Shown in pieces: positions 4,429 to 45,103 of a stretch of 64,000 bases of DNA. The translations under genes were made by a program, and so were the position numbers. Where the stretch lies: the NCBI GenBank assembly GCA_000989765.1, contig LBOW01000001.1:118538-182537 (forward strand). Direction: 5' to 3'. Numbering within the stretch: position 1 is the stretch's first letter; each line of letters begins with the position of its first letter. The notes under the pieces are model-generated. The model ran no database searches. It saw only the letters and a program-made list of their open reading frames with translations, and had not been told where the DNA came from. The stretch comes from Candidatus Woesebacteria bacterium GW2011_GWB1_33_22 (GTDB lineage Bacteria > Patescibacteriota > Microgenomatia > UBA8517).

Positions 4429-5466
4429 AAATATTAATTGACGCAAGGCTTTGGGGACCAAAAAACACTGGAAATGGTAGGTATACAAAAGAATTAATTG
4501 AAAATTTGGCAAAAATAGATCTAAAAAATAATTATATTATTTTATTGAGAAAAGATAATTTTGATAAAGTTATTTTGCCTAATAATTTTCAAAAAGTTTT
4601 AGCTGATTTTAAACATTATTCTTTTGAAGAACAATTTAAACTACCACTTTTGATAAATAAATATAAGCCAAACTTGGTTCATTTCCCCCACTTTAACGTT
4701 CCAATTTTTTACTTTGGAAAGTTTGTTGTTACCATTCATGATCTTATAATGCATAAATTTACTGGTGGGGAAGCAACGACAAGAAAATTTCCAATTTATC
4801 AAATTTGGAGAATAGGATATTACCTTTCTTTTACAAAAGCAGTTTTTGGGTCAGTTAAAATAATTGTTCCAAGTAATCTTGTTAAAACAGAATTAGTCTA
4901 TTATTACAACATTGATTTAAATAAAGTGGAGGTAACCTATGAGTAAATATTTTATATACACGGGGAATGCCTATCCTCATAAGAATTTAAGTAGACTTAT
5001 TGATGCAGTTGTTTTGTTAAAGACGAACCTAAGAATTGTTTCTGGTAGAAGCGTGTTTATTGAAAGACTGGAAAATGAGATAAAACTTAAAAATGCAGAA
5101 AAATATGTTGAGGTTTTAGGGTTTGTAGATGACGATGATTTAACAAAACTCTATAAAGATTCAGTAGCTTTTGTTTTTCCCACACTTGCAGAAGGTTTTG
5201 GATTGCCTCCCATGGAAGCCATTAATGCAGGAACATTGGCAGTTGTGTCTGAAATTCCAGTATTAAAAGAAGTTTACGAAGATTCTGTTTTTTATTTTGA
5301 CCCACTAAATGTAAATTCAATAAAAAATGCTTTGGAAAAAATATTAAAAATTAAGGATGAAGAAAAAGAAAAAATAATAGCAAAATCACAAAAATTCTTA
5401 AAAAGATATTCATGGCTTAAAATGGCCAAAGAAACACTTGAGGTTTATAAGTTAATAAAGACATAA
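4425..5466 (+). pseudogene. GT4 glycosyltransferase split into two overlapping ORFs (4425-4946 N-domain, 4939-5466 C-domain), apparently by a frameshift
   Basis: the first ORF carries a GT4 N-terminal domain and the second carries the conserved C-terminal GFGLPPMEA motif; together about 348 aa, the size of one enzyme; the ORFs overlap by 8 nt. Confidence 0.55.
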
Positions 5467-5488
5467 TATTTGGAGTAAAATACTTCTA

Positions 5489-6619
5489 ATGGATCTTAAT
5501 AATCTGAAAATTGCAATTGTATATGATAGGGTAAATAAATTTGGTGGGGCGGAGAGAGTGTTGTTGTCATTTCATGAGATGTTCCCAAAAGCACCACTTT
5601 ATACATCTGTTTACGATCCCAAAAAGGCTTCTTGGGCGTCAGTTTTCTCAAAAATTTACACAACTTTTCTACAAAAGATACCTATATTACGAAATTATCA
5701 TGAACTAATGGGGTGGTTGATGCCAATAGCTTTTGAGACTTATAATTTTGACAATTACGATTTAGTGATTTCTGTTACTTCTGAGGCCGCAAAGGGAATT
5801 ATTACGGGCACAAAGACGTTACATGTTTGCTACATGTTAACTCCCACTCGCTACCTTTGGTCACACTATGAGTCATACTTTAAAGGTTCAACCTTTAAAG
5901 GTCTGACTAAACCAATTGTTAATTATTTAAGATGGTGGGATGAGGTTGCAAGTAAAAGACCCGATAAAATAATAGCAATATCAACTGAAGTGAAAAGAAG
6001 AATAAAAAAATATTATGATCGTGATAGTGAGATAATATTCCCTCCCGTTAATTCTCCCGAGGTGGCATTAGTAAATCACCCCAGGGGTGGAATTTATTAT
6101 TTATACGTAGGGAGATTGGTTGGTTATAAAAAAGTTGATTTATTAATTGAGACTTTTAATGATTTAGGTTTACCACTTGTTGTGGTGGGAATTGGTGCAG
6201 AATTATCTAAATTAAAACGTAAAGCTCATAACAACATCAAATTTTTATGTCAAGTAACAGATAAAGAGTTAGTCAAAATATATCAAGGTGCAAAGGCATT
6301 GATAATGCCCCAAATAGAAGACTTTGGAATTACTTCAGTTGAGGCTCAGGGAATTGGAGTTCCTGTTATTGCATATAATAAAGGTGGAGCAATGGATACT
6401 GTCATACCAAATAAGACTGGAATTTTTTTTAATAACCAAACAAAAGAAAGTTTAAAGCAGGCAATTGCAAAATTTGATACAATGAGATTTAATAATATAG
6501 ACTTAATAAACAATGCTAAAAATTTTTCAAAAGAGAAATTTAAAAGAAAACTACAAAGATCACTTGTACGCTCTTATAGTAGTTGGTGGAGGAGGAACAC
6601 GTCTTTGGCCAGTATCTAA
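5489..6619 (+). CDS. glycosyltransferase family 4
   Basis: N-terminal KIAIVYDRVNKFGGAERV and C-terminal GT1 signature; contains an in-frame REP palindrome at 5878-5900. Confidence 0.75.
   Translation: MDLNNLKIAIVYDRVNKFGGAERVLLSFHEMFPKAPLYTSVYDPKKASWASVFSKIYTTFLQKIPILRNYHELMGWLMPIAFETYNFDNYDLVISVTSEAAKGIITGTKTLHVCYMLTPTRYLWSHYESYFKGSTFKGLTKPIVNYLRWWDEVASKRPDKIIAISTEVKRRIKKYYDRDSEIIFPPVNSPEVALVNHPRGGIYYLYVGRLVGYKKVDLLIETFNDLGLPLVVVGIGAELSKLKRKAHNNIKFLCQVTDKELVKIYQGAKALIMPQIEDFGITSVEAQGIGVPVIAYNKGGAMDTVIPNKTGIFFNNQTKESLKQAIAKFDTMRFNNIDLINNAKNFSKEKFKRKLQRSLVRSYSSWWRRNTSLASI
5878..5900. repeat. REP-like palindrome copy 1 (CTTTAAAGGTT-C-AACCTTTAAAG), in-frame inside a GT4 gene
   Basis: perfect 11-bp arms; encodes FKGSTFKG. 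Confidence 0.85.
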
Positions 6620-7649
6620 AATTTCATCTCCAAAACAATTTTTGAAATTATTTAATAATCAAACTTTAACGCAGATCACCTCGTATCGTTTTAATAAAAT
6701 TCTGGCTTGGGAGAAAATATTTGCAGTTACAACCAGCGAAGAATATAAAAAGGAGATTCTTAAAGAAGTACCAGAATTTATAGCGAAAAATATCATTGTC
6801 GAACCAATAAAACGAAATACTGCGGCAGCTCACGCCTTAGGTTGTGTTTATATTGTACAAAAAGATTCCAAAGCCATAATCTTAAATGAAGCAGCTGATC
6901 ACTTAGTAGATCCACAAAGAGAGTACTTAAAGAATTTATTATCCGCCGCTAAAGCTGTTTTTGATAAAGATTTACTTTTAGCCATTGGAATAAAACCAAC
7001 TTACCCAAATGTTGGGTATGGATATATAAAATTAGGCGAAAAATTAGCTGAATATGATGGAAAACATGTCTTTAAACTAGATGCTTTTACCGAAAAACCT
7101 GAACTTGAAATTGCAAAAAAGTATTTAGCTTCTGGCAAATATTTTTGGAACGGAAATCAGTATGTCTGGGGAGCCCAAACTTTTCTTAAGGCATTAGAAA
7201 AATATGCTCCAGATATCGCCTCAGGAATGAAACTAATTGCAGGTGTGATTGGAGAAAAAAAAGAGAAAGAAATTATTAAAGAAGTTTATGAAAAACTTCC
7301 TGATATCTCTGTTGATTATGCAGTAAGCGAAAAGGCTAAAAACTTTATAATGATTGTTGCAGATTATGGTTGGACTGATATAGGAGATTGGAAAGAAGTT
7401 TGGGAAAATAGTCCAAAAGATCACAATGGAAATGTAGTAATTACTGAAAATAGTGAAAAAGTAATTAATATCGACACAACTGATGCCTTAATCCATTCTG
7501 ACGGAAGGCTAATAGCTGCAATTGACGTAGATAATTTAATTATTGTAGATACGGAAAAGGCACTACTAGTTTGTTCAAAAAGCCACGCTCAATCGGTTAA
7601 AAAAATTGTCGAGTTTTTAAAGGAAAAGAATAGGAAAGATCTTCTTTAA
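6513..7649 (+). CDS. mannose-1-phosphate guanylyltransferase-like sugar nucleotidyltransferase
   Basis: ALIVVGGGGTRLWP nucleotidyltransferase G-loop; ManC-like length; the annotated ATG overlaps the upstream gene by 107 nt, so the true start may lie downstream. Confidence 0.7.
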   Translation: MLKIFQKRNLKENYKDHLYALIVVGGGGTRLWPVSKISSPKQFLKLFNNQTLTQITSYRFNKILAWEKIFAVTTSEEYKKEILKEVPEFIAKNIIVEPIKRNTAAAHALGCVYIVQKDSKAIILNEAADHLVDPQREYLKNLLSAAKAVFDKDLLLAIGIKPTYPNVGYGYIKLGEKLAEYDGKHVFKLDAFTEKPELEIAKKYLASGKYFWNGNQYVWGAQTFLKALEKYAPDIASGMKLIAGVIGEKKEKEIIKEVYEKLPDISVDYAVSEKAKNFIMIVADYGWTDIGDWKEVWENSPKDHNGNVVITENSEKVINIDTTDALIHSDGRLIAAIDVDNLIIVDTEKALLVCSKSHAQSVKKIVEFLKEKNRKDLL

Positions 7650-10815: not shown

Positions 10816-12075
10816 ATGGATTTGATGGAAAAGATTACAGCCCTAGCGAAGAGAAGGGGATTTATATTTCAGTCTTCTGAAATATACGGAGGTTATCAGG
10901 GCTTTTGGGATTATGGGCCAGTTGGTGTTGAGTTAAAGAAAAATATTAAGAATGAATGGTGGAAAACCATGGTTTATGGAAGGGAAGATGTTGTAGGTGT
11001 TGATGCTTCAATTATAATGAATCCAATTGTTTGGGAAAAATCAGGACATTTGAAAGCTTTTACCGACCCGTTGGTTGAATGCAAGATTTGTCATAAAAGG
11101 TTTAGAGAGGACCAAAAAGATATTCATGAACATAATAATTGGACTGAGAGCAAAACCTTTAACTTAATGACGGAAGTTTTATTGGGTACAATTGAACCAA
11201 AAGAAAAGTCTTATTTAAGGGGAGAAATAACCCAAGGTGTTTTTGTTAATTTTAAAAATGTGGTTGACTCTACGAGAGTTAAAATACCTTTTGGTATAGC
11301 ACAGATTGGTAAAGCATTTAGAAACGAAGTAACTCCAGGGAACTTTACATTTAGGTCAAAAGAGTTTGAACAAATGGAACTTGAATATTTTGTTAAACCT
11401 AATGAGAAAGAAAGCAAAAAAACATTTGAAGATTTTAAAGAGATAAGAATTAACTGGTATAAAAATTTAGGCATGAATCCAAAAAAGTTGCATTTTAAGG
11501 ACCACGAACCTGAAAAAAGAGCCCATTATGCAAAATATGCAACAGACATTGAATACGAAGCACCGTTTGGTTGGAGTGAAATGGAAGGAATACACCATAG
11601 GGGAGACTATGATCTAAGTAATCACAACTTGAAATACAAAGATAATTTAAACAATGAAGAATATACCCCATGGGTTATTGAGACATCAGGAGGTGTGGAC
11701 AGAGCTACACTCTTCTTTTTAATTGATGCTTTCACCGAAGGTGTTGACGGTAGAGTGGTACTAAAACTTAATCCTAAAATTGCCCCTTACAAAGTGGCAG
11801 TTTTCCCACTTCTGGCAAATAAGCCTGAGTTAGTAGAAAGAGCTAGATCTGTCTATAGTCTATTGTCTACGGTCTACAGTTGCGCGTGGGATGATAGAGG
11901 AAACATCGGCAAACGTTACTTTGCTCAAGATGAAATAGGTACTCCTTGGTGTGTCACTGTTGATTTTGACTCACTTAAGGACGATTCTGTAACAGTTAGA
12001 GATAGAGATACTGGAAAACAGGAAAGAATTACGGTCGTCAAATTACAAAGCTATTTTGAAGACAAGTTTCAATGA
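10816..12075 (+). CDS. glyQS: glycine--tRNA ligase (dimeric class II type)
   Basis: N-terminus ITALAKRRGFIFQSSEIYGGYQGFWDYGPVGVELK is diagnostic of GlyRS. Confidence 0.9.
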   Translation: MDLMEKITALAKRRGFIFQSSEIYGGYQGFWDYGPVGVELKKNIKNEWWKTMVYGREDVVGVDASIIMNPIVWEKSGHLKAFTDPLVECKICHKRFREDQKDIHEHNNWTESKTFNLMTEVLLGTIEPKEKSYLRGEITQGVFVNFKNVVDSTRVKIPFGIAQIGKAFRNEVTPGNFTFRSKEFEQMELEYFVKPNEKESKKTFEDFKEIRINWYKNLGMNPKKLHFKDHEPEKRAHYAKYATDIEYEAPFGWSEMEGIHHRGDYDLSNHNLKYKDNLNNEEYTPWVIETSGGVDRATLFFLIDAFTEGVDGRVVLKLNPKIAPYKVAVFPLLANKPELVERARSVYSLLSTVYSCAWDDRGNIGKRYFAQDEIGTPWCVTVDFDSLKDDSVTVRDRDTGKQERITVVKLQSYFEDKFQ

Positions 12076-12581
12076 TTAATCAAAAACCTTTTGTTCATAA
12101 ATTAGTTATCTGTGCAAATGTTTTCGTTAGAAAAGATGGTAAGTATCTTTTGATGAAAAGATCTCCAGAAAAAAAATATGCACCAAATAAGATCCATCCC
12201 TTTGGTGGAAAAATAGACAAGGATGAAAATCCTTATGTTGGGGCTGTTAGAGAAATTAAAGAAGAAATTGGAATTGATATAAAGAATTTGAAACTCGAAG
12301 CTGTTATTTTGGAAAAAACGGATGAAAAAGATTTACCAGTAAATTGGTTAGTTTTTTATTTTTCTGCAGATTATGACAAAGGCGAAGTTAAAATTAATGA
12401 AGAAGGAGAAGCAGTATATTTAACCGAAAATGAAATAAAAAATTCTGATCAGTTCCCTTCAGTCAAAAGTATTCTTGACCATATTTTAAATCCCAATGAT
12501 GGTACTGTATTTACTACAAATAGTTACAAGGGATTTGAAAGTGGGATGCAAGAAATTTCAAAAAATGTCTGTATTGTATAA
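12072..12581 (+). CDS. NUDIX hydrolase
   Basis: Nudix box GGKIDKDENPYVGAVREIKEEIGI. Confidence 0.8.
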   Translation: MINQKPFVHKLVICANVFVRKDGKYLLMKRSPEKKYAPNKIHPFGGKIDKDENPYVGAVREIKEEIGIDIKNLKLEAVILEKTDEKDLPVNWLVFYFSADYDKGEVKINEEGEAVYLTENEIKNSDQFPSVKSILDHILNPNDGTVFTTNSYKGFESGMQEISKNVCIV

Positions 12582-16667: not shown

Positions 16668-17918
16668 ATGGCTAAGTTTTTAATAACAGGCGGAAAGAAA
16701 CTTGAAGGAGAAATTGACATTTTTGGTAACAAAAATTCTGCCTTAAAACTTATCCCAGCAGTTCTTGTATCTGCCTCAAAATCGATTCTTACCAATGTTC
16801 CAAACATCTCAGATGTTAGAGTTTTAATCGAAATAATAGAAAAATTAGGTGCTAAAACAAGCTTTAAAGATAATGTACTAGAGATTGATGCAACAACTTT
16901 GAATTCATATGAGCCTGATCCAGATTTGTGTTCAAAGATTAGGGCTTCAGTAGTTCTTGCAGCCCCTCTTCTTGTGAGGTTTGGTAAGGCCGTATTAACC
17001 CCGCCCGGCGGTGACCAGATTGGGGATAGGCTTCTTGATACTCATTTCTCAATGATGCAAAAGCTTGGAGCAAACTTCAGACGGGAAAATGGTAAATTTT
17101 ATCTCACATGGGATAAAAAAATTGGTGGAAAGATATTTTTAGAAGAAGCCTCAGTCACTGCTACAGAAATGGGGATTATTATGGCCTCATCAATGAACGA
17201 AGAAGTAACAATTGAAGATGCAGCTGCCGAACCACATGTCGGTAATTTGATAGATTTACTTGTCAAAATGGGAGCAAAAATTATTGGTCGTGGTACAAAT
17301 ACCTTAACTGTTTCGGGAGGAAAACTTAATGGAGTTGAGCATAAAGTTATGGCTGATCATATTGAAGGTGGAACCTTTGCTATTGCCTCTGCAATTACTG
17401 GAGGGAAAATTAAGATCAATAATTTTGAAGTTGAAAACTACCACATGATTCTAAATTATTTAGGAAATATGGGAGTTAGTTATAAAATTGAAAAGAACAG
17501 TTTAATTGTATTACCTTCAAAACTTATTGCTTCAAGAAGAAAATTTCAAACCAGACCTTGGCCAGGTTTTCCAACAGACTTGATGAGTCCATTTATAGTT
17601 CTTGCAACACAAACCGCAGGAACAGTTCTTTGCCATGATTGGATGTACGAATGGAGGATGTTTTTTGTCGATGACCTTATAGGAATGGGTGCTAACATTT
17701 TTATTGCAGATCCACATAGAGTAATAATTTCAGGTCCAACAAAACTAATGGCAGATAGACTTTTTTGTAAAGATATAAGGGCGGGAATATCAGTTATTTT
17801 GGCTGCATTGGCAGCAGAAGGAACTAGTACTATTGAAAATGTCGAAGTTGTAGATAGAGGTTATCAAAATATAGAAGATAGGTTGAGAACATTGGGTGCT
17901 TCTATTGTAAAACAATGA
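16668..17918 (+). CDS. murA: UDP-N-acetylglucosamine 1-carboxyvinyltransferase MurA
   Basis: length and conserved N-terminus FLITGGKKLEGEIDIFGNKNSALKLI. Confidence 0.9.
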   Translation: MAKFLITGGKKLEGEIDIFGNKNSALKLIPAVLVSASKSILTNVPNISDVRVLIEIIEKLGAKTSFKDNVLEIDATTLNSYEPDPDLCSKIRASVVLAAPLLVRFGKAVLTPPGGDQIGDRLLDTHFSMMQKLGANFRRENGKFYLTWDKKIGGKIFLEEASVTATEMGIIMASSMNEEVTIEDAAAEPHVGNLIDLLVKMGAKIIGRGTNTLTVSGGKLNGVEHKVMADHIEGGTFAIASAITGGKIKINNFEVENYHMILNYLGNMGVSYKIEKNSLIVLPSKLIASRRKFQTRPWPGFPTDLMSPFIVLATQTAGTVLCHDWMYEWRMFFVDDLIGMGANIFIADPHRVIISGPTKLMADRLFCKDIRAGISVILAALAAEGTSTIENVEVVDRGYQNIEDRLRTLGASIVKQ

Positions 17919-19819
17919 TTCAATTTGATTCAAGAAAAGTTAAAAAGGGCGACACCTTTGTAGCTATAAAGGGTTTGACTCATGACGGAAATGATTTTAT
18001 TCAAGATGCAATCAAAAACGGGGCCATCAAAGTATATAAAAATAGTAATTATGAAGAACTGGGGAAATTAGTTAAAGATTATTACAAGGATCCAAGTAGT
18101 AAATTAAAAATAATAGGTGTTACTGGAACAAAAGGTAAAACCACAACTTGTCATTTGATTCACCATATTTTGTTGGAAAGTGGCAAAAAGACAGGTTTAA
18201 TTTCATCGATTACTACTGATGGTTTTCATACAACTACACCCGATGTCATTTCGCTAAATCAAGAACTTTCTAATATGCTCAAAAAAGGTTATGAATATGT
18301 TGTTTTGGAAGTCAGTTCTCATGGAATAGATCAAGGTAGAATTGCTGGAATTAAATTTGATATTTCTGTTTTGACAAACATCCATCCTGAACACTTAGAC
18401 TACCATAAAACATTTGAAGAATATAAAAGAGTTAAAATGATGTTTATAAATTCGGCTAAATTTAGAGTATTTAGTCCGTCTTCTAGTAAGTTAAAGATTC
18501 TTCAGGGGGAATTTAATAATATAAATGCAGAAACAGCTGTTGAAGTAGCAATGGAATTAGGAATTAGTAAAGAGAAGGCTCTAAAATCACTTAAGACATT
18601 TAAATTACCTAGTGGTAGGTTAGAAGAAATTGATACTCACAGGGATTTTAGGGTATTTGTAGATTTTGCTCATACTCCAGATTCTTTGGAAGCTGTACTT
18701 AAATATTTAAGAACTATTACAAAAAATAGATTAATTTCTGTTTTTGGTTGTGCGGGAGAAAGAGATCCAAAAAAAAGATCAAAAATGGGAAAAATTTCAA
18801 CTGAAATTGCAGACCTTTCTATTTTTACTGCAGAAGATACTAGAACAGAATCTATTTTTGATATTCTAAAACAGATGCGATCAAAGGCTATTAAAAATAA
18901 ATTTATCTGTATTCCTGAAAGAGGAGAGGCGATTGCTCACGCGTTATCAATTGCTAAAAAAGGTGATATCGTTGGTGTCTTTGGAAAGGGGCATGAGAAA
19001 TCAATGTGTTACTTAAATTTTGAACACTCTTGGAATGATCAAAAATTTATTAAAAATTTATTATTAGGTTATAAGGATTTATCAGGAATTATCTTAGCTG
19101 CAGGTAAGGGAACTAGAATGAAATCTAATTTACCTAAGGTGATTCACACAATTTGTGGTAGACCAATGATTTCATATTCATTGGAAAATTTGAGAAATAC
19201 TGGTATTGTAAATTTATTACCCGTTATTGGATATAAGAGACATTTAGTTCTTCGAGAAATATCAAGAAATATTGACTTTGTTGTACAAATAAAAACATCT
19301 GGCACGGGAGATGCAGTTAAAATAGCTCTAACTAAAATTAATCCAAAGATGAAAAATATTTTAGTAATAAATGGTGATGATAGTGCTTTTTACAAACCAG
19401 AAACGATTAAAAATGTTATAGAAACACACATTAATAGTAAAGCTGTGATAACTTTTGTTAGCTTGATTCAAGGAAATCCTAAAGGTCTAGGAAGGGTAGT
19501 AAGAAACAAGCATGGCCAGTTTAAAGCAATAATAGAAGAAAAAGATGCAAGTGAAGAGGTAAGAAAAATAAAAGAAGTAAACGATGGACTTTACATATTT
19601 AATCAAGTTTGGCTTAGGAAAAATATTTTAAAGTTAACAAAAAGCCCTATTAGTAAAGAATATTATTTAACAGATCTTTTAAAAATTGCAGTTGATAAAT
19701 CTGAGAAAATATCAATTTATAAACTTCCAGACTCAAGTGAGTGGCAGGGAATTAATACCCCAGAACAGCTTCAAGAAGCAGAAGAAAAAATGAAAAAAAG
19801 ATTAAATGAAAAAATATAA
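17915..19819 (+). CDS. murE: fusion protein: MurE-like Mur ligase (aa 1-~375) plus GlmU-type N-terminal sugar-1-phosphate nucleotidyltransferase domain (aa ~385-634)
   Basis: Mur ligase P-loop IGVTGTKGKTTT and DFAHTPDSLEAVL C-domain, then ILAAGKGTRMKSNLPKVIHTICGRPMI, the GlmU uridyltransferase signature; no LbH acetyltransferase repeats. Confidence 0.75.
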   Translation: MIQFDSRKVKKGDTFVAIKGLTHDGNDFIQDAIKNGAIKVYKNSNYEELGKLVKDYYKDPSSKLKIIGVTGTKGKTTTCHLIHHILLESGKKTGLISSITTDGFHTTTPDVISLNQELSNMLKKGYEYVVLEVSSHGIDQGRIAGIKFDISVLTNIHPEHLDYHKTFEEYKRVKMMFINSAKFRVFSPSSSKLKILQGEFNNINAETAVEVAMELGISKEKALKSLKTFKLPSGRLEEIDTHRDFRVFVDFAHTPDSLEAVLKYLRTITKNRLISVFGCAGERDPKKRSKMGKISTEIADLSIFTAEDTRTESIFDILKQMRSKAIKNKFICIPERGEAIAHALSIAKKGDIVGVFGKGHEKSMCYLNFEHSWNDQKFIKNLLLGYKDLSGIILAAGKGTRMKSNLPKVIHTICGRPMISYSLENLRNTGIVNLLPVIGYKRHLVLREISRNIDFVVQIKTSGTGDAVKIALTKINPKMKNILVINGDDSAFYKPETIKNVIETHINSKAVITFVSLIQGNPKGLGRVVRNKHGQFKAIIEEKDASEEVRKIKEVNDGLYIFNQVWLRKNILKLTKSPISKEYYLTDLLKIAVDKSEKISIYKLPDSSEWQGINTPEQLQEAEEKMKKRLNEKI

Positions 19820-20807
19820 TCAAAAAGTAGTTACATTTGGAGGAGGAACTGGTCAATTCCACCTACTATCAGGCCTTCGTGAATTAAACAAAAACTTATT
19901 TATTACGGCAGTAGCTGGAACATGGGATTCTGGCGGTAGTTCTGGCCGTTTAAGAGCAGAAATTGGCGTTTTACCACCTGGGGATATAAGGCGTTGTTTA
20001 TTGGCTTTAATGCCTAATGAAAAACAAAGAATGGTAGCCCAAAGGCTCTTTGATGACAGATTGGAAGATATGACAGGGCCGCTTAAAGGTCATTCCTTCG
20101 GTAATCTTTTAACTGCTCGTCTTGAAAATATCTACAAAGGACAAGATAGGGGAATTGACGCTGAACGGGAACTTTTTGGAGTAGAGGCAAAAGTAATGCC
20201 TATTAGTATTACCAATTTAGAGCTGATTGCTGAAACGTCAAAAGGAAATAAAATAATTGGAGAAACAAATATTGATTTGCGAATTAAAGATAAAAATTAC
20301 GATACTGAAGATAAAATAGTCAGAATTTATTTTGATACTAGGGCTGATATAAATTCAAATGTTTTAACTGAAATTCGAAATGCAGATAAAATCATTTTTT
20401 CATCTGGAGACCTTTATACAAGTATACTTCCTCACTTACTTGTTAATGGAGTAAAAGAAGCAATAGTTAGCTCTAAGGCAAAATTAATTTATGTATTAAA
20501 TTTGGCCACGAAACCTGGTGAAACCGACCACTACAAAGCCTCAGATTTTTTAAAAGCATTTCTTTTTTACCTTGATACACCAAAAAGACTTGATTATTTA
20601 GTTGTAAACAGTAATCACCTGGATTCTGAGATATTAGATATTTATAAAGGAGAGGGTCAGAATTTAGTTGAAGTTGATAGTTCTAAAATAAGACAAATTG
20701 AACCGAGGTTAAAAATTGTTAGAAAATCAATTTCAATTTATTTCAAAAAGGACCACTTGCTTCGCCATGACTCAATAAAACTAGCCAAAGCAATTCTTAA
20801 AATTTAG
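19806..20807 (+). CDS. YvcK/CofD-like (UPF0052) protein
   Basis: FGGGTG...AGTWDSGGSSGRLR motif of the YvcK gluconeogenesis-factor family. Confidence 0.8.
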   Translation: MKKYNQKVVTFGGGTGQFHLLSGLRELNKNLFITAVAGTWDSGGSSGRLRAEIGVLPPGDIRRCLLALMPNEKQRMVAQRLFDDRLEDMTGPLKGHSFGNLLTARLENIYKGQDRGIDAERELFGVEAKVMPISITNLELIAETSKGNKIIGETNIDLRIKDKNYDTEDKIVRIYFDTRADINSNVLTEIRNADKIIFSSGDLYTSILPHLLVNGVKEAIVSSKAKLIYVLNLATKPGETDHYKASDFLKAFLFYLDTPKRLDYLVVNSNHLDSEILDIYKGEGQNLVEVDSSKIRQIEPRLKIVRKSISIYFKKDHLLRHDSIKLAKAILKI

Positions 20808-20820
20808 TAGTATTAAAATT

Positions 20821-22563
20821 CTATTTTACAGTTACGCTTTTGGCGATATTTCTAGGTTTGTCAATATCGTTTCCCTTAAAAAGGGCAATATAATATGCAA
20901 GAAGTTGTAATGACACTATATTTGATATTGCAGAAGTTTCTGATTTTTCCTTGTCTTCTAATAAATAAACATCCGCTCTCCTGGCCTTAACTTCATTCAT
21001 AGCATTTATAACATCATCTCTTACTTCATCATTTGATATTACAAATATTACAGGAACCCCCTTTTCCATTAATGTAATTGCATAATGTTTTAAATCTCCA
21101 GCAGAAATACCATGGGCGTGAATATAACTACCTTCGATTATTTTTACCATTCCCTCTTTAATAATTTGTAAATTTTGACCCTTTCCTAAAATAAAGATAT
21201 CTTTTTGCCTTGATAATATTCTGGCCAAATTTTTAAGCCTATTTATATTAGTTTTTGAATTTAATAATTTATTTATTTTTTGAGATAATTTGATTAAATT
21301 ATTAATTCCCTTTTTATATTTACCTTCAACTATTTTGGCAAGTAAATAACCCCATGAAATTTGAGAAACAAAGACCTTTGTTGACATTACACATATCTCA
21401 GGCCCAGCATTAGCCATAAATTTAAAGTCAGAAAGTCTTGACATCAAGCTTCCTTGCATGTTTACATATGATGCAAATTTAACTTTCTTTAGTTTTTTTA
21501 CCTTTTCAACAAATTCTAAAACATCCGCGGTTTCACCACTTTGAGAAGGGGCGATTACTAAGTCGTTTTTATTAATTAAATCAACATATTCGCTTGCTTC
21601 TGCGCCAATTAAAGAAATTGCATTAATTTTTCCAAAAGTTCTTAAGTAAAATGCAATCTGTGCTGCTGCAGCACCGGCTGTTCCAGAACCAATACAATAG
21701 ACGTTTTTTGATTTTTTAATTTGTGTTGCTAACTTTTTTAAACTTGTAAAATCCTGTTTTATTACCGCTCTTATGACATTAGGTTGTTCATAAATTTCTT
21801 TGATCATGAAATGTTTATATTTTCCTTTGGCGACTTTTTGTTTTTGGATTTTGTTTTTTTCATCTTTTAAATCTATATTTTTACCTGTAACTACATCCTT
21901 AAGAGTTATTTTGCCTTCTGAATAAATTGCCATATTACCATTCTCTAATGTAAGTGTTTGATCAACATATGGGGCAAACGAGAGTGTGTCCGAAGAAAAA
22001 TATATTTCAGTTTTGTCTTTTGAAAAGCCTAACACTAAAGGTGAGCCGTTTCTAACTCCAACAACTTGACCATCCTTTGTCAAAATTATTATCGTATTTC
22101 TACCCCTTAATTTATTAAATGCCTTTCTTATTGCTTCAATAATATTCTTTGCCTTTATGCTTTCCTCTTCAATTAGGCGAACAATGACTTCTGTGTCAGT
22201 TTGAGAAATAAATTTATAGTATTTTTTAAACAAGTTTACCTTTATCTCTTCGTGGTTTTCCATTATTCCGTTTTGAGCTAAAATAAAACTTTTGTCTGAA
22301 GAAAAATGTGGATGGGCGTTTAAATCAGTTACAGCTCCATGCGTAGCCCATCTAGTGTGGCCGATTGCAATACTACTTTTAGGAAGTTTAAGTAAAGCCT
22401 TATTTACTTTTCCTACATGTTTGTTCAAAAGAATTTTATGATCATTGATAACAGCAATTCCCCAGCTGTCATAACCTCGATAATCAAGCCTTTTTAAACC
22501 GTCAAAAACTGCACTTGTTGCGTTTCTTTTTTTACCTATGTATGCATATATTCCACACATTTT
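20821..22563 (-). CDS. glmS: glutamine--fructose-6-phosphate aminotransferase GlmS
   Basis: MCGIYAYIG Ntn-glutaminase N-terminus and SIS domains; the ORF track extends 13 codons upstream, but the catalytic Cys2 requires the start at 22563. Confidence 0.9.
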   Translation of the reverse strand, partial: KMCGIYAYIGKKRNATSAVFDGLKRLDYRGYDSWGIAVINDHKILLNKHVGKVNKALLKLPKSSIAIGHTRWATHGAVTDLNAHPHFSSDKSFILAQNGIMENHEEIKVNLFKKYYKFISQTDTEVIVRLIEEESIKAKNIIEAIRKAFNKLRGRNTIIILTKDGQVVGVRNGSPLVLGFSKDKTEIYFSSDTLSFAPYVDQTLTLENGNMAIYSEGKITLKDVVTGKNIDLKDEKNKIQKQKVAKGKYKHFMIKEIYEQPNVIRAVIKQDFTSLKKLATQIKKSKNVYCIGSGTAGAAAAQIAFYLRTFGKINAISLIGAEASEYVDLINKNDLVIAPSQSGETADVLEFVEKVKKLKKVKFASYVNMQGSLMSRLSDFKFMANAGPEICVMSTKVFVSQISWGYLLAKIVEGKYKKGINNLIKLSQKINKLLNSKTNINRLKNLARILSRQKDIFILGKGQNLQIIKEGMVKIIEGSYIHAHGISAGDLKHYAITLMEKGVPVIFVISNDEVRDDVINAMNEVKARRADVYLLEDKEKSETSAISNIVSLQLLAYYIALFKGNDIDKPRNIAKSVTVK

Positions 22564-22591
22564 GCTCTCATGAAGTATAATATAAAAGTAT

Positions 22592-23767
22592 ATGAAAAGC
22601 ATTCACTTAATGGGGATTTTAGGTAGTGGAATGTCTGGAATTGCTTCACTGGCATCTCAAATGGGCTACCAGGTCTCAGGTTGTGATTTAAAACTTGAAG
22701 GTCACAACAGTGAACACTTGAAAGACATTGATTTATTAGTCGTCTCTCCTGCAATTTTGTATCAGGAAAAAGAAGATCCAGAACTTATCTTAGGAAAGAA
22801 TAAAAACATTGTCACAACTTGGCAAGAATTTTTAGGGAAATATCTAATGAAAGATAAAAAAGTTATTGCAATAGCAGGAACACATGGTAAATCAACCACT
22901 ACTGCAATGGTAGCTAAAATTTTAATTGATAATGGATTTGATCCAAGTGTTGTAATTGGTGCATATGTTTTTGAGTGGAAAGGAAATTCAAGGTATGGTA
23001 AAGATAAATATTTTATAGTTGAAGCAGATGAATTCAACGATAATTTTTTAAACTACTATCCAAATATTGCTGTTATCAATAACATAGAATTTGACCACCC
23101 TGATTATTTCAAAGATGAAAAACAGGTATTTGAAAGTTTTGAAAAATTTAAAAAGAATTTAGTAGGGGAAAAAATTTTAATTACTGAAAAAGATAGTCTT
23201 AATAAACGTTTTAATTTGAAAGTTTTTGGCGAACATAATCAAAAGAATGCCAACATGGCCTACTTAGTAGGAAGACAATTAAAAATTAAAAAAGAAGAAA
23301 TAATAAAATCTTTAGAAAATTTTACTGGAATCGGTAGAAGGATGGAATTAATAGGAAAAGTAGGTAAAACTTTAGTTTTTGATGATTACGCGCATCACCC
23401 TACAGCCATAAGGGCAACTCTGGCGGGTGTTAGACAGAGATTTTCTAATAGAATCTGGGCAATTATTGAAGCCCATGGATTTAATAGAACTAATGCCTTA
23501 CTTAAACTATATAAAGGTGTATTTAGTAATGCAGACAAAGTAATTGTTGGTCCAATTTATAAAGCTAGAGATAAAAACACCTTTGAAATGACTCCTGAAA
23601 AAATTGCGATAGCTTCAGGGCATAAAGATATAAAAGCTTGTAATACAATTGAAGAAATTATAAATACCTTAAAAAATGAAGTTAAACAAAAAGATATAAT
23701 CGTGGTTATGGGTGCGGGAAATAGTAACTTATGGGCAAAACAAATACTAAAAGCTTTAAAGAATTAA
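22592..23767 (+). CDS. murC: UDP-N-acetylmuramate--L-alanine ligase MurC (short form)
   Basis: N-terminus IHLMGILGSGMSGIASLASQMGYQVSGCD and P-loop AIAGTHGKSTTT. Confidence 0.8.
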   Translation: MKSIHLMGILGSGMSGIASLASQMGYQVSGCDLKLEGHNSEHLKDIDLLVVSPAILYQEKEDPELILGKNKNIVTTWQEFLGKYLMKDKKVIAIAGTHGKSTTTAMVAKILIDNGFDPSVVIGAYVFEWKGNSRYGKDKYFIVEADEFNDNFLNYYPNIAVINNIEFDHPDYFKDEKQVFESFEKFKKNLVGEKILITEKDSLNKRFNLKVFGEHNQKNANMAYLVGRQLKIKKEEIIKSLENFTGIGRRMELIGKVGKTLVFDDYAHHPTAIRATLAGVRQRFSNRIWAIIEAHGFNRTNALLKLYKGVFSNADKVIVGPIYKARDKNTFEMTPEKIAIASGHKDIKACNTIEEIINTLKNEVKQKDIIVVMGAGNSNLWAKQILKALKN

Positions 23768-24693
23768 CAACTCTAAAAGTTGGTGGAGAAATAAAATACT
23801 TTTTTGAAGTAAAGAATCAAAAAGAATTGGTTGACAAAGTTTCTTTTGCAAAAAATAAAAGTCTCACCATTTTTATAATAGGTGGTGGAAGTGATATTGC
23901 TGTATCTGACAAAAATTTCGAAGGAGTAGTTATTAAATATGTAGGTAGTAGTGTACAGGTAATAGGTAATTTGGTTAAGGTTGAGGCGGGAATGAATTGG
24001 GATAAATTAGTAGAAGAAACAGTTAATAGAAATTTACAGGGGATAGAGTGCTTGTCAGGAATTCCCGGTAGCGTTGGGGCGTCGCCCATACAAAACATAG
24101 GTGCATATGGACAAGAATTATCAGAAACTTTTATAGAATTAAAAGCATACGATATATCAAATCAAAAGTTTGTAATATTTAAGAACGAGGATTGTAAATT
24201 TAGTTATAGAGAAAGTATTTTTAAAAGAAAAGATTATTGGCAGAAATTTATAATAGTAGATATTACACTTAAGCTAAAAAAATATACTGATAATAATCTA
24301 GAATTACAAACAATTAGGGATGAAATATTAAGAATAAGGGGAGAAAAATTGGTAAATCCTGATGAAATTCCAAATGCCGGGTCATTTTTTAAAAACCCAA
24401 TAATAAACAAGAGTAAAAAAGATACCCTACTTATAAAGTATCCCGAAATGGTAATATTTCCCTTCAACAATGAGTACAAAATTTCAGCTGGTTGGCTGAT
24501 AGAAAAAACGGGTTGGAAAGGAAAAAGTTTAGGGCCAGTTAAAGTTTCAGATAAACACTCTTTAGTATTAACAAATCCAGAAGGAAAGGGAACTTTTTCT
24601 GACATTAAAAGTCTGGCTGATACAATAATTGCTGATGTAGATAATAAATTTGGAATTAAACTTGAGCCAGAAGTACAATATATAAATTTATGA
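23731..24693 (+). CDS. murB: UDP-N-acetylenolpyruvoylglucosamine reductase MurB
   Basis: FAD-binding IIGGGSDIAV and GIPGSVGASPIQNIGAYG motifs. Confidence 0.85.
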   Translation: MGKTNTKSFKELTTLKVGGEIKYFFEVKNQKELVDKVSFAKNKSLTIFIIGGGSDIAVSDKNFEGVVIKYVGSSVQVIGNLVKVEAGMNWDKLVEETVNRNLQGIECLSGIPGSVGASPIQNIGAYGQELSETFIELKAYDISNQKFVIFKNEDCKFSYRESIFKRKDYWQKFIIVDITLKLKKYTDNNLELQTIRDEILRIRGEKLVNPDEIPNAGSFFKNPIINKSKKDTLLIKYPEMVIFPFNNEYKISAGWLIEKTGWKGKSLGPVKVSDKHSLVLTNPEGKGTFSDIKSLADTIIADVDNKFGIKLEPEVQYINL

Positions 24694-27146
24694 ATTATAA
24701 AGATTTAAGAAAAAAATATCCAGAATTTACTTATGATAGTTATTCTTGGAGATTAGATGGTAATAATTTAAATTTAAATTTTATTTATAAAGTAGGAGAA
24801 TTTGAATTTAAACATGAAATAATAATTGAGAATTTAGATAAATACTCAATTAACAAAGTTAATGAACAGATAGATACCCTTGTCTTCAATATCGGAATGG
24901 TTGAGATTTTTAATTACTGGAAAACCTTTTGTTCTCCAAAAATAGTTATCAAAGCTGGTTTCTTGAACGAGCATCAGATTAATTGGTGGAAGAAATTGTT
25001 AATAAAGGGTATGGGGCAGTATTTTTATGAAAATAAAATTGATTTCACAACAAAAAATTTTGTCGATTTTACGACTACAGGACAACCTTTAAAGGTTGAA
25101 CCTTTAAAGGTATTGGGGGAAGAAGTTTTGATACCTATTGGCGGGGGAAAAGATTCTGCTGTTACTTTAGAATTGGTTACTAAAAATTTTGAAAACAGTT
25201 TAGGTTTAATAGTAAACAAAATCAAAGCAAGAGTTGATTCTGCATCTGTTGCGGGTATTAAAACAATGGTTGTCAAAAGAACTTTAGACAAAGCAATGAT
25301 AGATTTAAACAAAAATGGCCTGTCTGCCGGCAGGCAGGGATATTTAAATGGACATGTACCGTTTACAACAGTTTTATCATTTATCTCTATTTTGGTGGCT
25401 TTTTTGAATAACAAAAAATATATAGCTTTTTCAAATGAACAAAGTTCCAATGAGGGAAATGTGACATTTAAAGGGTTATCTGTTAACCATCAATACAGTA
25501 AATCTTTTGAGTTAGAAAATGATTTTAGAGAATATAATTTTAAATATTTGACTGATATAGAATATTTTAGTTTCTTAAGGCCAATTTATGATATTCAGAT
25601 AGCTAAAGTTTTTTCTCAATATTCTAAATATTTTTACAAAATAGTAAGTTGCAATATAGGAAGAAATAATAATATTTGGTGTGGTAAGTGTCCGAAATGT
25701 TTGTCGACATTTATTTTATTTAAACCTTTTTTAAAAAATGAAACTATAACAATATTTGGGAAGGATTTATTGGCTGATAAATCACTTAAACCTGTTTTGG
25801 ATGCACTAACAAATGACAATTTAGTTAAACCGATGGAGTGTGTGGGAACAAAACATGAATTAAGAGTGGCCTTGGGTGTAGAAAACGATGACAATTTAAT
25901 AAATTTTTGGGGAGAAAACAATCTACCTGCAATTTTTAAAATTATTCTTTATTTTAACTTAAATTTCAAAGATAAAAAAATTCTAATTTTAGGGTATGGA
26001 CGTGAAGGTAAAAGTACAGAAAAGTTGATTAAAAAATATTTACCTAAACAAAAAGTTGACATAGCCGACCAAAAATTGAGTAAAGATTATTTAAAAGATT
26101 TAAATAATTATGATTTTGTTTTTAAATCACCAGGAATACCAAATAAATTAAGAGAAATTCAAAATGCTAAGAAAATGGGTACTGTTTTTGCGTCCCAGAC
26201 TAAAATATTCTTAAAATTATATCGAGATAATGTTATAGGAGTAACAGGAACAAAAGGTAAAAGTACAACAAGTTCACTAATTTATTATATATTAAAATCT
26301 GCGGGCATAAATACGACATTGGTAGGTAATATTGGCAAACCTGTTTTTGACTATTTAGATAATGATGACAAAGATAAGATTTTTGTTGCAGAGCTTTCGT
26401 CTCATCAATTAAGTGATGTTCAGGATAGTCCACATATTGCAGTTCTATTAAACATCTTTCCTGAACACCTCGATTACTATGAAGATTTTAATGATTATAA
26501 GAAATCAAAAGAGAATATATTTAAGTTTCAAAAATCAACAGATATTTATATTTCCTGTGAAGATATAAATAATTTTGAGTTACCTAAAATTAAAACAAAT
26601 TTAATAGGTCAACATAATTTAAGTAACATTAAAGCTGCTTTTCTAGTCGCATTAAAACTTGGAATTGACAAAAAAGACATTATTAAAGCACTTTCCACAT
26701 TTGAATCTCTTGAAGATAGGTTGGAAACAATAAGAGAAATAAATGGTATAAAGTTTATAGTTGATGGTTTAGCAACAATCCCTGAGGCATCTCTTGCTGG
26801 TATTGATAGTTTTGAAAACAAAAATATAACCCTAATTTTGGGAGGATTTGATAGAGGTGTAAGTTTTGCTTCTTTTGGAAAAGAGTTAATTAAAAGAAAA
26901 AACATTAAAAACATAATTCTTATTGGTCAAACTGCTGATAAAATTGAAAAATCTTTAAAAAATTCAAAAGCTAATGTTTATAATTTAGGTTTTGTTTCCA
27001 TGAATAAGATTATTCAAAAAGCATTTGAAATTTCAAAAAAAGATTATATAGTTTTATTTTCTCCTGCCGCAACGAGCTTTGACATGTTTAAAGATTATGA
27101 AGAAAGAGACAATCAATTTAAGGAGGCAGTGAAAGCTCTAAAATGA
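24690..27146 (+). CDS. murD: fusion protein: N-terminal ~420-aa PP-loop ATP-pyrophosphatase-like domain (GGGKDS) with a C-terminal Cys cluster, plus C-terminal MurD (UDP-MurNAc-L-Ala--D-Glu ligase)
   Basis: PIGGGKDSAVTLELV PP-loop; CNIGRNNNIWCGKCPKC cysteine cluster; then the MurD Rossmann KKILILGYGREGKST and P-loop GVTGTKGKSTT; contains two in-frame palindromic repeats. Confidence 0.7.
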   Translation: MNYKDLRKKYPEFTYDSYSWRLDGNNLNLNFIYKVGEFEFKHEIIIENLDKYSINKVNEQIDTLVFNIGMVEIFNYWKTFCSPKIVIKAGFLNEHQINWWKKLLIKGMGQYFYENKIDFTTKNFVDFTTTGQPLKVEPLKVLGEEVLIPIGGGKDSAVTLELVTKNFENSLGLIVNKIKARVDSASVAGIKTMVVKRTLDKAMIDLNKNGLSAGRQGYLNGHVPFTTVLSFISILVAFLNNKKYIAFSNEQSSNEGNVTFKGLSVNHQYSKSFELENDFREYNFKYLTDIEYFSFLRPIYDIQIAKVFSQYSKYFYKIVSCNIGRNNNIWCGKCPKCLSTFILFKPFLKNETITIFGKDLLADKSLKPVLDALTNDNLVKPMECVGTKHELRVALGVENDDNLINFWGENNLPAIFKIILYFNLNFKDKKILILGYGREGKSTEKLIKKYLPKQKVDIADQKLSKDYLKDLNNYDFVFKSPGIPNKLREIQNAKKMGTVFASQTKIFLKLYRDNVIGVTGTKGKSTTSSLIYYILKSAGINTTLVGNIGKPVFDYLDNDDKDKIFVAELSSHQLSDVQDSPHIAVLLNIFPEHLDYYEDFNDYKKSKENIFKFQKSTDIYISCEDINNFELPKIKTNLIGQHNLSNIKAAFLVALKLGIDKKDIIKALSTFESLEDRLETIREINGIKFIVDGLATIPEASLAGIDSFENKNITLILGGFDRGVSFASFGKELIKRKNIKNIILIGQTADKIEKSLKNSKANVYNLGFVSMNKIIQKAFEISKKDYIVLFSPAATSFDMFKDYEERDNQFKEAVKALK
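25086..25110. repeat. REP-like palindrome copy 2 (CCTTTAAAGGTT-G-AACCTTTAAAGG), in-frame inside the PP-loop::murD gene
   Basis: perfect 12-bp arms; encodes PLKVEPLKV. Confidence 0.85.
25319..25338. repeat. GC-rich palindrome copy A (CCTGTCTGCCGGCAGGCAGG), in-frame in PP-loop::murD
   Basis: 20-bp palindrome with 1 mismatch; encodes LSAGRQG. Confidence 0.8.
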
Positions 27147-27805: not shown

Positions 27806-28873
27806 ATGAAAAGGTTATTACAAATCTGGGTGGGTAAAGATCTACCTTTGGTACATGTAAAATTAAACAACGGTTTAAAAAAACTTTTTTATGATTTAGT
27901 ACTTCATCCAGTAAAAAGAAGAGTAGCCAAGATTTATGTGAAGTTTTTACAAAAGTTTTTTAAACTCACTGTTGTTGGTATAACTGGGAGTGCTGGTAAA
28001 ACAACTACTAAGGAAATGATTGTTAACATTTTAAAAAGAGTAGACAATACCGTGTGGAGTAAGGACAATATTGATCCTATATTTAATATTCCCACGACAA
28101 TATTAAAATGTACACCTAAAACAAAATATCTTGTACTTGAAATGGGCGTCGAATATCCAAATGAGATGGATTTTTACCTTTGGTTGGTTCGACCGTCAAT
28201 TGGTGTGATTACTAACATTTTTTCCACACATACTTTGTTTTTTGGAAATGAAAAGGGAGTTTTTAAAGAAAAAAGTAAACTAGTAAAAAGTACGAACATT
28301 GCCATTTTAAACTCAGATGACAAGTATCTCTATTCTTTAAAAGATAAGATTAAAGCAAATATTTGTTGGTTTAAAAAAGATGAAGACCCAATTTTGCAAA
28401 ATAAAAATACTGCAAGAGCAGTTTGCGAGGTATTGGGTATTGAAAAGACGTTAATTGAAGAGGGACTAAGTGATTATGAAAATCCCAAACATAGGCTATC
28501 TATGATTAAACATAAATCTGGGGCATATATTTTTGATGATACTTACAATAGTAATCCAGAAGCTTTTAGAAATAGCCTTTCATATTTTGTAAAACTGGCG
28601 GGGAAAAATAATAAAATTGCAGTTGTTGGGGATATGTTAGAACTTGGGGAGAGAGAGGTTGAAGAACACAAAAAAATCGCCAAAGAACTTAAAAATAATA
28701 ACTTTAAAAAAGTTTTTGGGGTTGGTAAATTAGTTAAATATATCACAAACGATGTTTACAATGATCCTTTGTCGGTTATGCCAAACTTGAAAAAATATCT
28801 TAAAAAGGAAAATTATATTTTTATTAAAGGATCTAGATCAATTGGTTTAGACAAACTTGTTGATAGGTTGTAA
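27806..28873 (+). CDS. murF: UDP-MurNAc-tripeptide--D-Ala-D-Ala ligase MurF (short form)
   Basis: Mur ligase P-loop VVGITGSAGKTTTKEM; position before mraY. Confidence 0.75.
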   Translation: MKRLLQIWVGKDLPLVHVKLNNGLKKLFYDLVLHPVKRRVAKIYVKFLQKFFKLTVVGITGSAGKTTTKEMIVNILKRVDNTVWSKDNIDPIFNIPTTILKCTPKTKYLVLEMGVEYPNEMDFYLWLVRPSIGVITNIFSTHTLFFGNEKGVFKEKSKLVKSTNIAILNSDDKYLYSLKDKIKANICWFKKDEDPILQNKNTARAVCEVLGIEKTLIEEGLSDYENPKHRLSMIKHKSGAYIFDDTYNSNPEAFRNSLSYFVKLAGKNNKIAVVGDMLELGEREVEEHKKIAKELKNNNFKKVFGVGKLVKYITNDVYNDPLSVMPNLKKYLKKENYIFIKGSRSIGLDKLVDRL

Positions 28874-44269: not shown

Positions 44270-44343
44270 GGTCGCATAGCTCAGCTGGTTAGAGCGTACG
44301 ATTCACATTCGTAAGGTCCTTGGTTCGATCCCAAGTGCGACCA
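44270..44343 (+). tRNA. tRNA-Val (anticodon CAC)
   Basis: cloverleaf: acceptor GGTCGCA/TGCGACC, D-arm AGCTCAGCTGGTTAGAGC, anticodon stem TACGA/TCGTA with loop TTCACAT, T-arm GGTTCGATCCC; CCA not encoded. Confidence 0.8.
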
Positions 44344-44756: not shown

Positions 44757-44804
44757 ATTTTTTTAATAAAGACATCTTACCAAAATATTTACTAACTTCA
44801 GCAG

Positions 44805-45020: not shown

Positions 45021-45055
45021 CTTTGTTCATTTAATACTTTTAAGATAAATGCCAA

Positions 45056-45085
45056 AACCCCGATCTTAATTAATCGGGGTGGCAT
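45056..45085 (-). terminator. rho-independent terminator for the minus-strand small gene (CCCCGAT-loop-ATCGGGG, then a T-run on the minus strand)
   Basis: 7-bp GC-rich stem followed by TTTTTGG on the minus strand, immediately after the stop at 45104. Confidence 0.5.
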
Positions 45086-45103
45086 ATGGATAACGATTAT
45101 CTT

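Follow-up and report, generated by a model that had tools for sequence, protein, structure and literature searches.

The stretch of DNA analysed here, called the window throughout, comprises 64,000 nucleotides (nt) of contig LBOW01000001.1 from Candidatus Woesebacteria bacterium GW2011_GWB1_33_22, a member of the candidate phyla radiation (CPR), with ~31% G+C across its length. Within its division and cell wall (dcw) cluster lies a gene, murE::glmU(N), whose single product joins the Mur ligase MurE to a C-terminal domain of the type that forms the N-terminal half of GlmU, the half that makes UDP-N-acetylglucosamine (UDP-GlcNAc) from N-acetylglucosamine-1-phosphate (GlcNAc-1-P). The gene is tightly packed, sharing 4 nt with the stop of murA and 14 nt with the start of yvcK. 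A sequence-only reading of the window had proposed one 634-aa open reading frame (ORF) at this position, with a three-domain MurE-type ligase followed by a GlmU N-type nucleotidyltransferase domain. The ORF list and the domain models agree with it on all of these points (Table 1).

Table 1. Position and assignment of the chimeric gene, its parts and its closest neighbours (window coordinates)
Feature	Coordinates	Strand	Details
Chimeric gene murE::glmU(N)	17915..19819	+	634 codons + stop, ATG start; ORF list, Pfam, NCBIfam, full-length homologues
MurE domain 1 (UDP-N-acetylmuramoyl-peptide binding), shortened	17915..18100	+	aa 1-62; Pfam Mur_ligase aa 1-38; alignment to full-size family members
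MurE central ATPase domain	18101..18610	+	aa 63-232; P-loop GTKGKTT aa 71-77, E132, EHLDYH aa 159-164, K174
MurE C-terminal domain	18611..19066	+	aa 233-384; DFAHTP aa 250-255, GERD, EDTR aa 307-310, GKGHE aa 357-361
Junction LGYKDL	19067..19084	+	aa 385-390; six residues, without flexible linker
GlmU-type GlcNAc-1-P uridyltransferase domain (predicted)	19085..19759	+	aa 391-615; LAAGKGTRM...PK aa 394-408
C-terminal long helix, equivalent to GlmU alpha-helical arm	19760..19816	+	aa 616-634; AlphaFold2 helix 616-633
murA, consumer of UDP-GlcNAc	16668..17918	+	Pfam EPSP_synthase
yvcK/glmR, UDP-GlcNAc-binding protein	19806..20807	+	TIGR01826 247 bits (cutoff 196); Pfam CofD
glmS, glutamine--fructose-6-P aminotransferase, first step towards UDP-GlcNAc	20821..22602	-	Pfam GATase_6/7 + SIS; convergent

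The two halves of the chimeric protein

Pfam recognised Mur_ligase at aa 1-38 (E 2e-6), Mur_ligase_M at aa 69-182 (E 1.7e-35, over profile positions 1-114 of 200 only), Mur_ligase_C at aa 234-359 (E 1.9e-29) and NTP_transferase at aa 391-628 (E 1.8e-19). Weak matches to IspD, CTP_transf_3 and MobA were rejected as superfamily cross-matches. The motifs on which the initial domain assignment had been built could all be located, with GTKGKTT at aa 71-77, DFAHTPDS at aa 250-257 and ILAAGKGTRMKSNLPKVIH at aa 392-410.

The MurE half (aa 1-384) scored 381.8 bits against the NCBIfam murE model TIGR01085 (cutoff 257.3), and narrowly missed one meso-diaminopimelate (mDAP) ligase equivalog (371.6 against a cutoff of 373). 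It carries the P-loop GxxGKT, the Mg-binding Glu and His residues, a carbamylatable Lys and the C-domain signature D-x-A-H-x-P, with K174 at the position of the carbamylated Lys. Across 79 aligned family members GTKGKTT is kept in 78, and EHLDYH, K174 and a 26-residue spacing are kept in every one; E132 and DFAHTP are likewise invariant. The earlier description of this MurE as complete holds insofar as all three domains are present, but the enzyme is compact, with a shortened domain 1 and central domain. Compared with full-size members, ~25 N-terminal residues and ~19 residues from a loop of domain 1 are absent, and in the central domain 26 residues (aa 175-200) stand in place of ~55 (model positions 226-281); the alignment to MurE models and to Thermotoga maritima MurE splits into two stretches. 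The same shortened Mur_ligase_M match is seen in the MurC (391 aa) and MurF (355 aa) of the window and in the MurD part of a neighbouring gene, which marks the compaction as a lineage trait rather than decay.

Together, the four Mur ligases of the window (17915-19066, 22592-23767, 26000-27146 and 27806-28873) are 60-100 aa below canonical length, and their Mur_ligase_M matches end at profile positions 114-138 of 200, a subregion of the central domain being lost. Some fusion homologues retain a full-size central domain (clusters P0121, P0122, P0124, P0125 and P0128; 671-758 aa).

The amino acid added by this MurE, which its specificity motif had been expected to reveal, is not callable from sequence. 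EDTR occupies the place of DNPR, the motif that defines the mDAP subtype, through whose Asn and Arg such enzymes bind mDAP at its distal carboxylate (PMC3829189). Among the 79 relatives this position reads EDPR in 70, EDSR in seven and EDTR in two. The Arg is kept and the Asn is changed to Asp, as in the DDPR of T. maritima MurE (alignment to 4bub), an enzyme that incorporates D-lysine (PMC3829189). T. maritima MurE is the closest solved sequence match (4BUB; E 6e-57, PDB entry deposited as LD-lysine ligase), but differs in being full size (~490 aa) and unfused, and in starting the motif with Asp, not Glu. As EDTR replaces DNPR, the database name '2,6-diaminopimelate ligase' is unproven for the chimera.

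Turning to the GlmU half (aa 391-634), eleven NCBIfam GlmU models matched the whole protein with up to 230 bits, aligned only to positions ~2-243 of ~450. In isolation this half scored 234 and 219 bits against GlmU equivalogs, compared with 105 for archaeal GlmU, 66 for AglF, 50 for RmlA, 46 for MurU (NF045761, cutoff 250) and 44 for IspD; the domain is not a cytidylyltransferase of an unrelated pathway. Scores of 215-234 bits lie below the GlmU cutoffs (367-450 bits), as suits a GlmU N-domain rather than a full GlmU (TIGR01173). Alignment with residues 5-246 of Streptococcus pneumoniae GlmU gave 37% identity (E 5.5e-44). The GlmU signature is present as LAAGKGTRMKSNLPK at aa 394-408, fitting L-x2-G-x-G-T-x-M-x4-P-K, as are the counterparts of the uracil-, GlcNAc- and Mg-binding residues of GlmU (Q458, G463-T464, D489, G526, E541, N556, Y584 and N614). 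The corresponding residues in Escherichia coli GlmU are G14 (G397), G16 (G399), R18 (R401), K25 (K408), Q76 (Q458), G81-T82 (G463-T464), D105 (D489), G140 (in GLGR), E154 (E541), N169 (N556) and N227 (N614). Invariant in the 79 members are G397, G399, R401, K408, Q458, G463-T464, D489, GLGR, E541 and N614, and N556 is retained in >90% of them. Judged by these scores and residues, aa 391-634 is specifically a bacterial GlmU N-domain.

The absence of a left-handed beta-helix (LbH), also part of the original description, was confirmed: no hexapeptide repeat follows the C-terminal helix, the protein has no Hexapep match (Pfam, NCBIfam) and the GlmU models align to their first ~243 positions. The arm that leads into the LbH in E. 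coli GlmU spans Leu230-Ala250 (PMC10087520), and the window protein stops where the LbH acetyltransferase of GlmU would start. Truncated halves of E. coli GlmU are each active, and uridyltransfer is independent of trimerisation (review PMC10087520 citing Pompeo 2001).

An AlphaFold2 model based on the 79-sequence alignment had a mean predicted local distance difference test score (pLDDT) of 91.8, a predicted template modelling score (pTM) of 0.88 and no disordered segment. Foldseek matched the MurE half to 1e8c and 4bub (target-normalised TM 0.71, root-mean-square deviation (rmsd) ~3 A) and the GlmU half to 1g97, which has UDP-GlcNAc and Mg bound (37% identity; rmsd 1.5 A across 245 aligned columns). 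In the window protein GKGHE and LAAG are 32 residues apart, a spacing shared by 73 of the 79 members.

Spread of the fusion and gene order in relatives

The 90%-identity cluster of the window protein includes KKP40687.1 and entries from Candidatus Woesebacteria GWC2_33_12, and was found on 16 contigs from NCBI, JGI, ENA and Logan; the window also matches contig MGFO01000017.1 of assembly GCA_001791935.1. At least 120 database clusters (90% identity) from independent assemblies hold a single ORF of 630-693 aa with both Pfam domain sets; the best 120 show 97-100% query coverage and 55-100% identity, with clusters other than that of the window protein at 55-85%. At least eight further clusters with the fusion architecture are found in the 50%-identity library. 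Averaged over the 79 members, identity to the window protein is 66% in the MurE half and 57% in the GlmU half, and by this measure both halves are under constraint. The architecture had been described as uncommon. It is indeed rare overall and lies outside the published survey of Mur chimeras, but within the Microgenomates/Woesebacteria clade it is common and old. Literature searches on GlmU, MurE, fusion and CPR returned no description of a MurE::GlmU-N chimera, and its sequences have been public since ~2015 under MurE-only names.

Gene arrangements were compared by tblastn over 82 related loci together with the gene tables of these loci; a contig scan with MurE-only peptide patterns gave mostly unfused MurE, and was used for synteny and not for fusion counts. 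In loci L036 (Woykebacteria) and L016, murE and a ~250-aa glmU-N adjoin in different reading frames, followed in L036 by murC-murB. Locus L003 has the fused ORF (679-aa open frame) and then directly murC-murB, while L001 has murE, then a GlmU-N::MurC ORF of 687 aa (5445-7508), then murB. Free glmU-N genes of 252-258 aa occur in L033, L034, L048, L069 and L002; they occupy other places within the dcw cluster, except that the L002 gene immediately precedes the cluster, beside recO. The reciprocal GlmU-N::MurC chimera forms ~55 clusters of 624-724 aa (P0207, P0397-P0450), including one from Curtissbacteria GW2011_GWA1_41, and is annotated only as MurC or as sugar phosphate nucleotidyltransferase. 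An LbH-less glmU located between murE and murC has thus been joined to either neighbour in different lineages. In a rough neighbour-joining tree of GlmU-N domains all of these CPR domains form one clade, distant from S. pneumoniae GlmU. The family of the window protein is one subclade of this; deeper in the tree, fused and free forms are intermixed at nodes that are short and lack support.

Neighbouring genes and the search for an acetyltransferase

The dcw cluster of the window runs mraZ, rsmH, a candidate ftsL (which has no family match), ftsI, murA, murE::glmU-N, yvcK/glmR and glmS (opposite strand), then murC, murB, an 818-aa murL-murD gene, pgeF, murF, mraY, ftsW and murG, and then an IS200-type transposase gene, a 231-aa ORF without a family match, ftsA and ftsZ. 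The UDP-GlcNAc supply genes beside the chimera support the GlmU-type assignment of its second half; in Listeria, GlmR is reported to act as an accessory GlcNAc-1-P uridyltransferase (PMC10128056). In the window yvcK/glmR and the convergent glmS (19806-22602) are inserted between the chimera and murC, and in the relatives L003, L034, L069 and L004 yvcK also accompanies murA, glmS or glmU-N.

A separate acetyltransferase for glucosamine-1-phosphate (GlcN-1-P) was looked for across the window, and none was found. Pfam on non-antisense ORFs of at least 110 aa detected no LbH, GNAT or GlmM protein in the 64 kb, tblastn of the window with an archaeal-type GlmU and a stand-alone LbH protein found no acetyltransferase, and a six-frame scan of the window for hexapeptide periodicity found no LbH. 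A hexapeptide gene just upstream of the window (L083 8905-9501) was considered as a substitute for the GlmU C-domain and rejected; its closest solved relatives are maltose/galactoside O-acetyltransferases and it lies in a glycosyltransferase cluster.

Related loci provide candidates. In L004, whose MurE is 53% identical, the order is murA-murE-X-(small HAD-like gene)-yvcK, and the slot X directly after murE (4277-5473) is filled by a 398-aa archaeal-type protein with nucleotidyltransferase and Hexapep domains. L034 encodes a 424-aa archaeal-type GlmU (11298-12572; TIGR03992, 239.5 bits) between murE and glmU-N, and such archaeal-type GlmU proteins are widespread in Gottesman- and Daviesbacteria. 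Beside mraZ in L036 lies a gene for a stand-alone 221-aa LbH protein (5503-6171, minus strand), whose best match is to the Sulfolobus ST0452 C-domain (E 5e-25), with weaker similarity to the C-domains of GlmU. These ST0452-like LbH proteins next to the dcw cluster, stand-alone in L036 and joined to a nucleotidyltransferase domain of their own in L004 and L034, are candidate GlcN-1-P acetyltransferases that could partner the LbH-less GlmU, and we infer that an archaeal-type LbH protein acetylates in trans in this group.

The 818-aa ORF (24690-27146, plus strand) looks like a second chimera of the same cluster. Its aa 70-397 match the MurL epimerase model NF041275 (211 bits, E 2e-62, under the equivalog cutoff) and include a PP-loop-like GGGKDS motif, and the remainder towards the C-terminus is MurD (TIGR01087, 320 bits; cutoff 212). 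The window encodes no glutamate racemase, whereas the relative L003 has instead a plain 442-aa MurD, an Asp_Glu_race gene and ddl. Together this suggests the MurD2/MurL route, in which L-Glu is ligated and then epimerised, here fused in a CPR bacterium; the route has been described as limited to few genera (PMC8788868).

Several other features of the window were recorded. The IS200-type Y1 transposase gene (32057-32734, plus strand) sits within the dcw cluster between murG and ftsA. A family 4 glycosyltransferase (4425-5466, plus strand) appears divided over two overlapping ORFs, a 173-aa Glyco_transf_4 N-half and a 175-aa Glycos_transf_1 C-half; the gene is either frameshifted or truly split, and the NCBI and ENA copies (L083, L084) are called with the same split. 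A tRNA-Val(CAC) gene (44270-44344) is followed by genes for a KilA-N protein and a C39-peptidase-like protein, with GC skew reversed or flat, and the region 44270-48365 may be an integrated element. At 51566-56606 (plus strand) a gene for a 571-aa AAA/SMC-like ATPase lies between those for a type I restriction-modification methylase and specificity subunit. Finally, the ~1 kb upstream of ileS (36160-37178) contains no ORF >84 aa and no Rfam family at gathering score, and may be a divergent leader.

Interpretation and comparison with known Mur chimeras

In our view the chimera probably combines two independent activities, brought together by read-through between neighbouring genes and retained for the benefit of co-expression or stability. 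This view builds on what the sequences show directly: which domains are present, that their catalytic residues are intact and conserved, and that the genes occur fused, unfused and in a reciprocal fusion. The product would be one rigid bifunctional polypeptide with two independent active sites, in which aa 1-384 act as a size-reduced MurE and aa 391-634 are predicted to convert GlcNAc-1-P and UTP to UDP-GlcNAc and pyrophosphate. Without an LbH domain, the GlmU half should be unable to acetylate GlcN-1-P, and no GlmU trimer is expected. We envisage a Microgenomates ancestor whose dcw cluster had murE beside a glmU that was by then without its LbH; loss of the stop between the two genes produced the fusion, which was then retained. 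Both activities and the selective advantage, like the acetyl source, are what we infer from this; the gains would be a fixed 1:1 co-expression, a more stable orphan GlmU N-domain and perhaps also a means of bringing that domain to the Mur ligases. Since domain-domain contacts in E. coli GlmU aid folding of the N-domain (review PMC10087520 citing Pompeo 2001), it is plausible that the fusion stabilises an N-domain that has lost its usual partner. An acetyltransferase whose gene lies outside the window must then provide GlcNAc-1-P in trans. The physical coupling of UDP-sugar synthesis to stem-peptide elongation that the sequence-only reading had suggested is retained here as co-expression on one chain but not as hand-over of substrate: four enzymatic steps separate the two reactions, and with MurA, MurB, MurC and MurD acting between UDP-GlcNAc formation and MurE, channelling is implausible.

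Some observations weigh against this interpretation. The MurE central domain lacks a subdomain found in all solved MurE structures, the signature Lys K398 of the GlmU half, although K in the window protein, can be K, R, M, L, C or V among family members, and no GlcN-1-P acetyltransferase, GNAT or GlmM was found within the 64-kb window. Both activities are assigned here from sequence and a structural model. Furthermore, so high a pTM suggests that the halves meet at a defined interface, which could mean functional integration instead of mere co-expression.

The last point leads to the most substantial alternative, in which the fusion is a 'Rosetta stone' for functional integration: GlmU-N would be part of a cytoplasmic Mur multi-enzyme assembly with kinetic or regulatory coupling, for example through local supply of UDP-GlcNAc to MurA and the Mur ligases, or through UDP-GlcNAc/UTP occupancy of the GlmU half modulating MurE. 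Depending on the lineage, GlmU-N is joined to one or the other of two Mur ligases, with the order of the partners reversed; the junction is of fixed length, the four-domain chain is modelled with a pTM of 0.88, and both transient Mur-Mur interactions and a linker-less MurE-MurF have been published (PMC10214165). However, the two reactions are not consecutive, the fusion partner is whichever gene adjoins glmU-N, and many relatives keep glmU-N free, which fits opportunistic read-through in compact operons; we therefore regard integration of this kind as unlikely. Slightly better odds, though still well short of an even chance, can be given to a related proposal in which the reciprocal chimeras are a Rosetta-stone signal of a GlmU stripped of its acetyltransferase/trimerisation domain and hard-wired into the Mur assembly, with acetylation by an archaeal-type LbH protein or a salvage bypass. 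If true, these ultra-small bacteria would have rewired their UDP-GlcNAc pathway and would carry a fragment of a 'Mur metabolon' that nature has already stabilised.

It is also improbable that the chimera does not make UDP-GlcNAc and acts instead on another sugar-1-phosphate (MurU-like salvage to UDP-N-acetylmuramic acid, UDP-GalNAc or UDP-Glc). The lack of an LbH acetyltransferase partner nearby, the scavenging habit of CPR bacteria and the archaeal-type bifunctional GlmU of some relatives, which could make UDP-GlcNAc alone, are compatible with such a specificity, but the GlmU models outscore MurU, RmlA and AglF several-fold, the GlcNAc- and uridine-contacting residues of GlmU are all conserved, murA and murB are present and de novo synthesis of UDP-N-acetylmuramic acid needs UDP-GlcNAc, and the nucleotidyltransferase-LbH analogue of GlmU in the same slot of L004 argues for an equivalent function. 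That one half is catalytically dead, serving only as scaffold or ligand sensor, would account for the shortened MurE central domain and the variable K398; we consider it very improbable given that this is the sole MurE in a cluster that has murC, murD and murF, that the catalytic residues of both halves are invariant and that the other Mur ligases of the window share the compaction. Lastly, a frameshift or lost stop in the sequencing or assembly might have merged two genes, and the unfused, frame-shifted neighbours in L036 and L016 and the AT-rich sequence around the junction could be read in this way. However, no stop or frameshift interrupts the ORF, the same cluster is seen on 16 contigs from four sources, and at least 120 clusters that have diverged from it keep a single ORF of fixed junction length. 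This excludes that the junction is frameshifted or misassembled, and an artefact has next to no probability.

The preferred reading of two independent activities on one chain can be placed among known systems. A 2023 survey of Mur chimeras recognised MurE-MurF, MurC-Ddl, MurC-MurB, MurG-MurC, MurD-FtsW and MraY-MurG types; it left out unidentified species and does not mention GlmU (PMC10214165). By the standards of that survey the present gene is a Mur chimera, being a single ORF in at least 120 clusters with unfused adjacent genes in relatives, and it adds the pair MurE and GlmU-N, conserved across a clade, to those known. MurE-MurF of Bordetella pertussis (PDB 8F5D; Shirakawa et al. 2023, PMC10214165) likewise has MurE at the N-terminus in a head-to-tail, linker-less arrangement with dcw neighbours, and the MurC-Ddl and MurG-MurC chimeras also join non-consecutive steps (PMC10214165). 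In the known chimeras, however, the partners are a Mur ligase, Ddl, MurB, MurG or FtsW, whereas here a compact MurE is paired with a GlmU uridyltransferase domain.

This domain shares its Rossmann-like fold, signature, binding residues and arm with bifunctional GlmU (E. coli and S. pneumoniae; 1G97, 4AAW, 1HV9) and with the truncated E. coli construct GlmU-Tr (1FWY/1FXJ), but it lacks the LbH acetyltransferase/trimerisation domain of bifunctional GlmU and follows MurE in the chain, whereas in GlmU it opens a separate protein. N-domain-only GlmU proteins, such as that of Polystyrenella longa (Fong et al. 2026 preprint, doi 10.64898/2026.06.23.733835), similarly consist of the uridyltransferase half only, with the acetyltransferase partner not named; they differ as free proteins of organisms that also have NagU, while the window domain is fused to MurE and belongs to a CPR lineage. 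GlmU-N::MurC of Curtissbacteria and relatives (P0207, P0409) has the same LbH-less N-domain, dcw neighbourhood and superphylum, except that GlmU-N is N-terminal and its partner is the downstream MurC. The archaeal-type bifunctional enzyme (Sulfolobus ST0452; 2GGO, 5Z09; TIGR03992) takes the same post-murE slot in L004 and stands beside glmU-N in L034, but has an LbH, is of another nucleotidyltransferase subfamily (the window domain scores 105 bits here and 234 with GlmU models) and is not in the window.

One practical consequence concerns annotation, as these chimeras are systematically named only 'MurE' or 'Mur ligase family protein', with an mDAP specificity that the motif does not support. 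Mur chimeras serve as evidence for, and as tools on, the cytoplasmic peptidoglycan-precursor complex, and the present one is a compact, naturally rigid construct for structural work. It also reveals a large uncultured clade in which peptidoglycan synthesis proceeds with a GlmU that has no acetyltransferase half, exposing a missing step, the source of GlcNAc-1-P. Above all, MurE::GlmU-N brings in a partner from outside the Mur ligase set, a UDP-GlcNAc-making enzyme, and that partner is found in two pairings, with MurE and with MurC.

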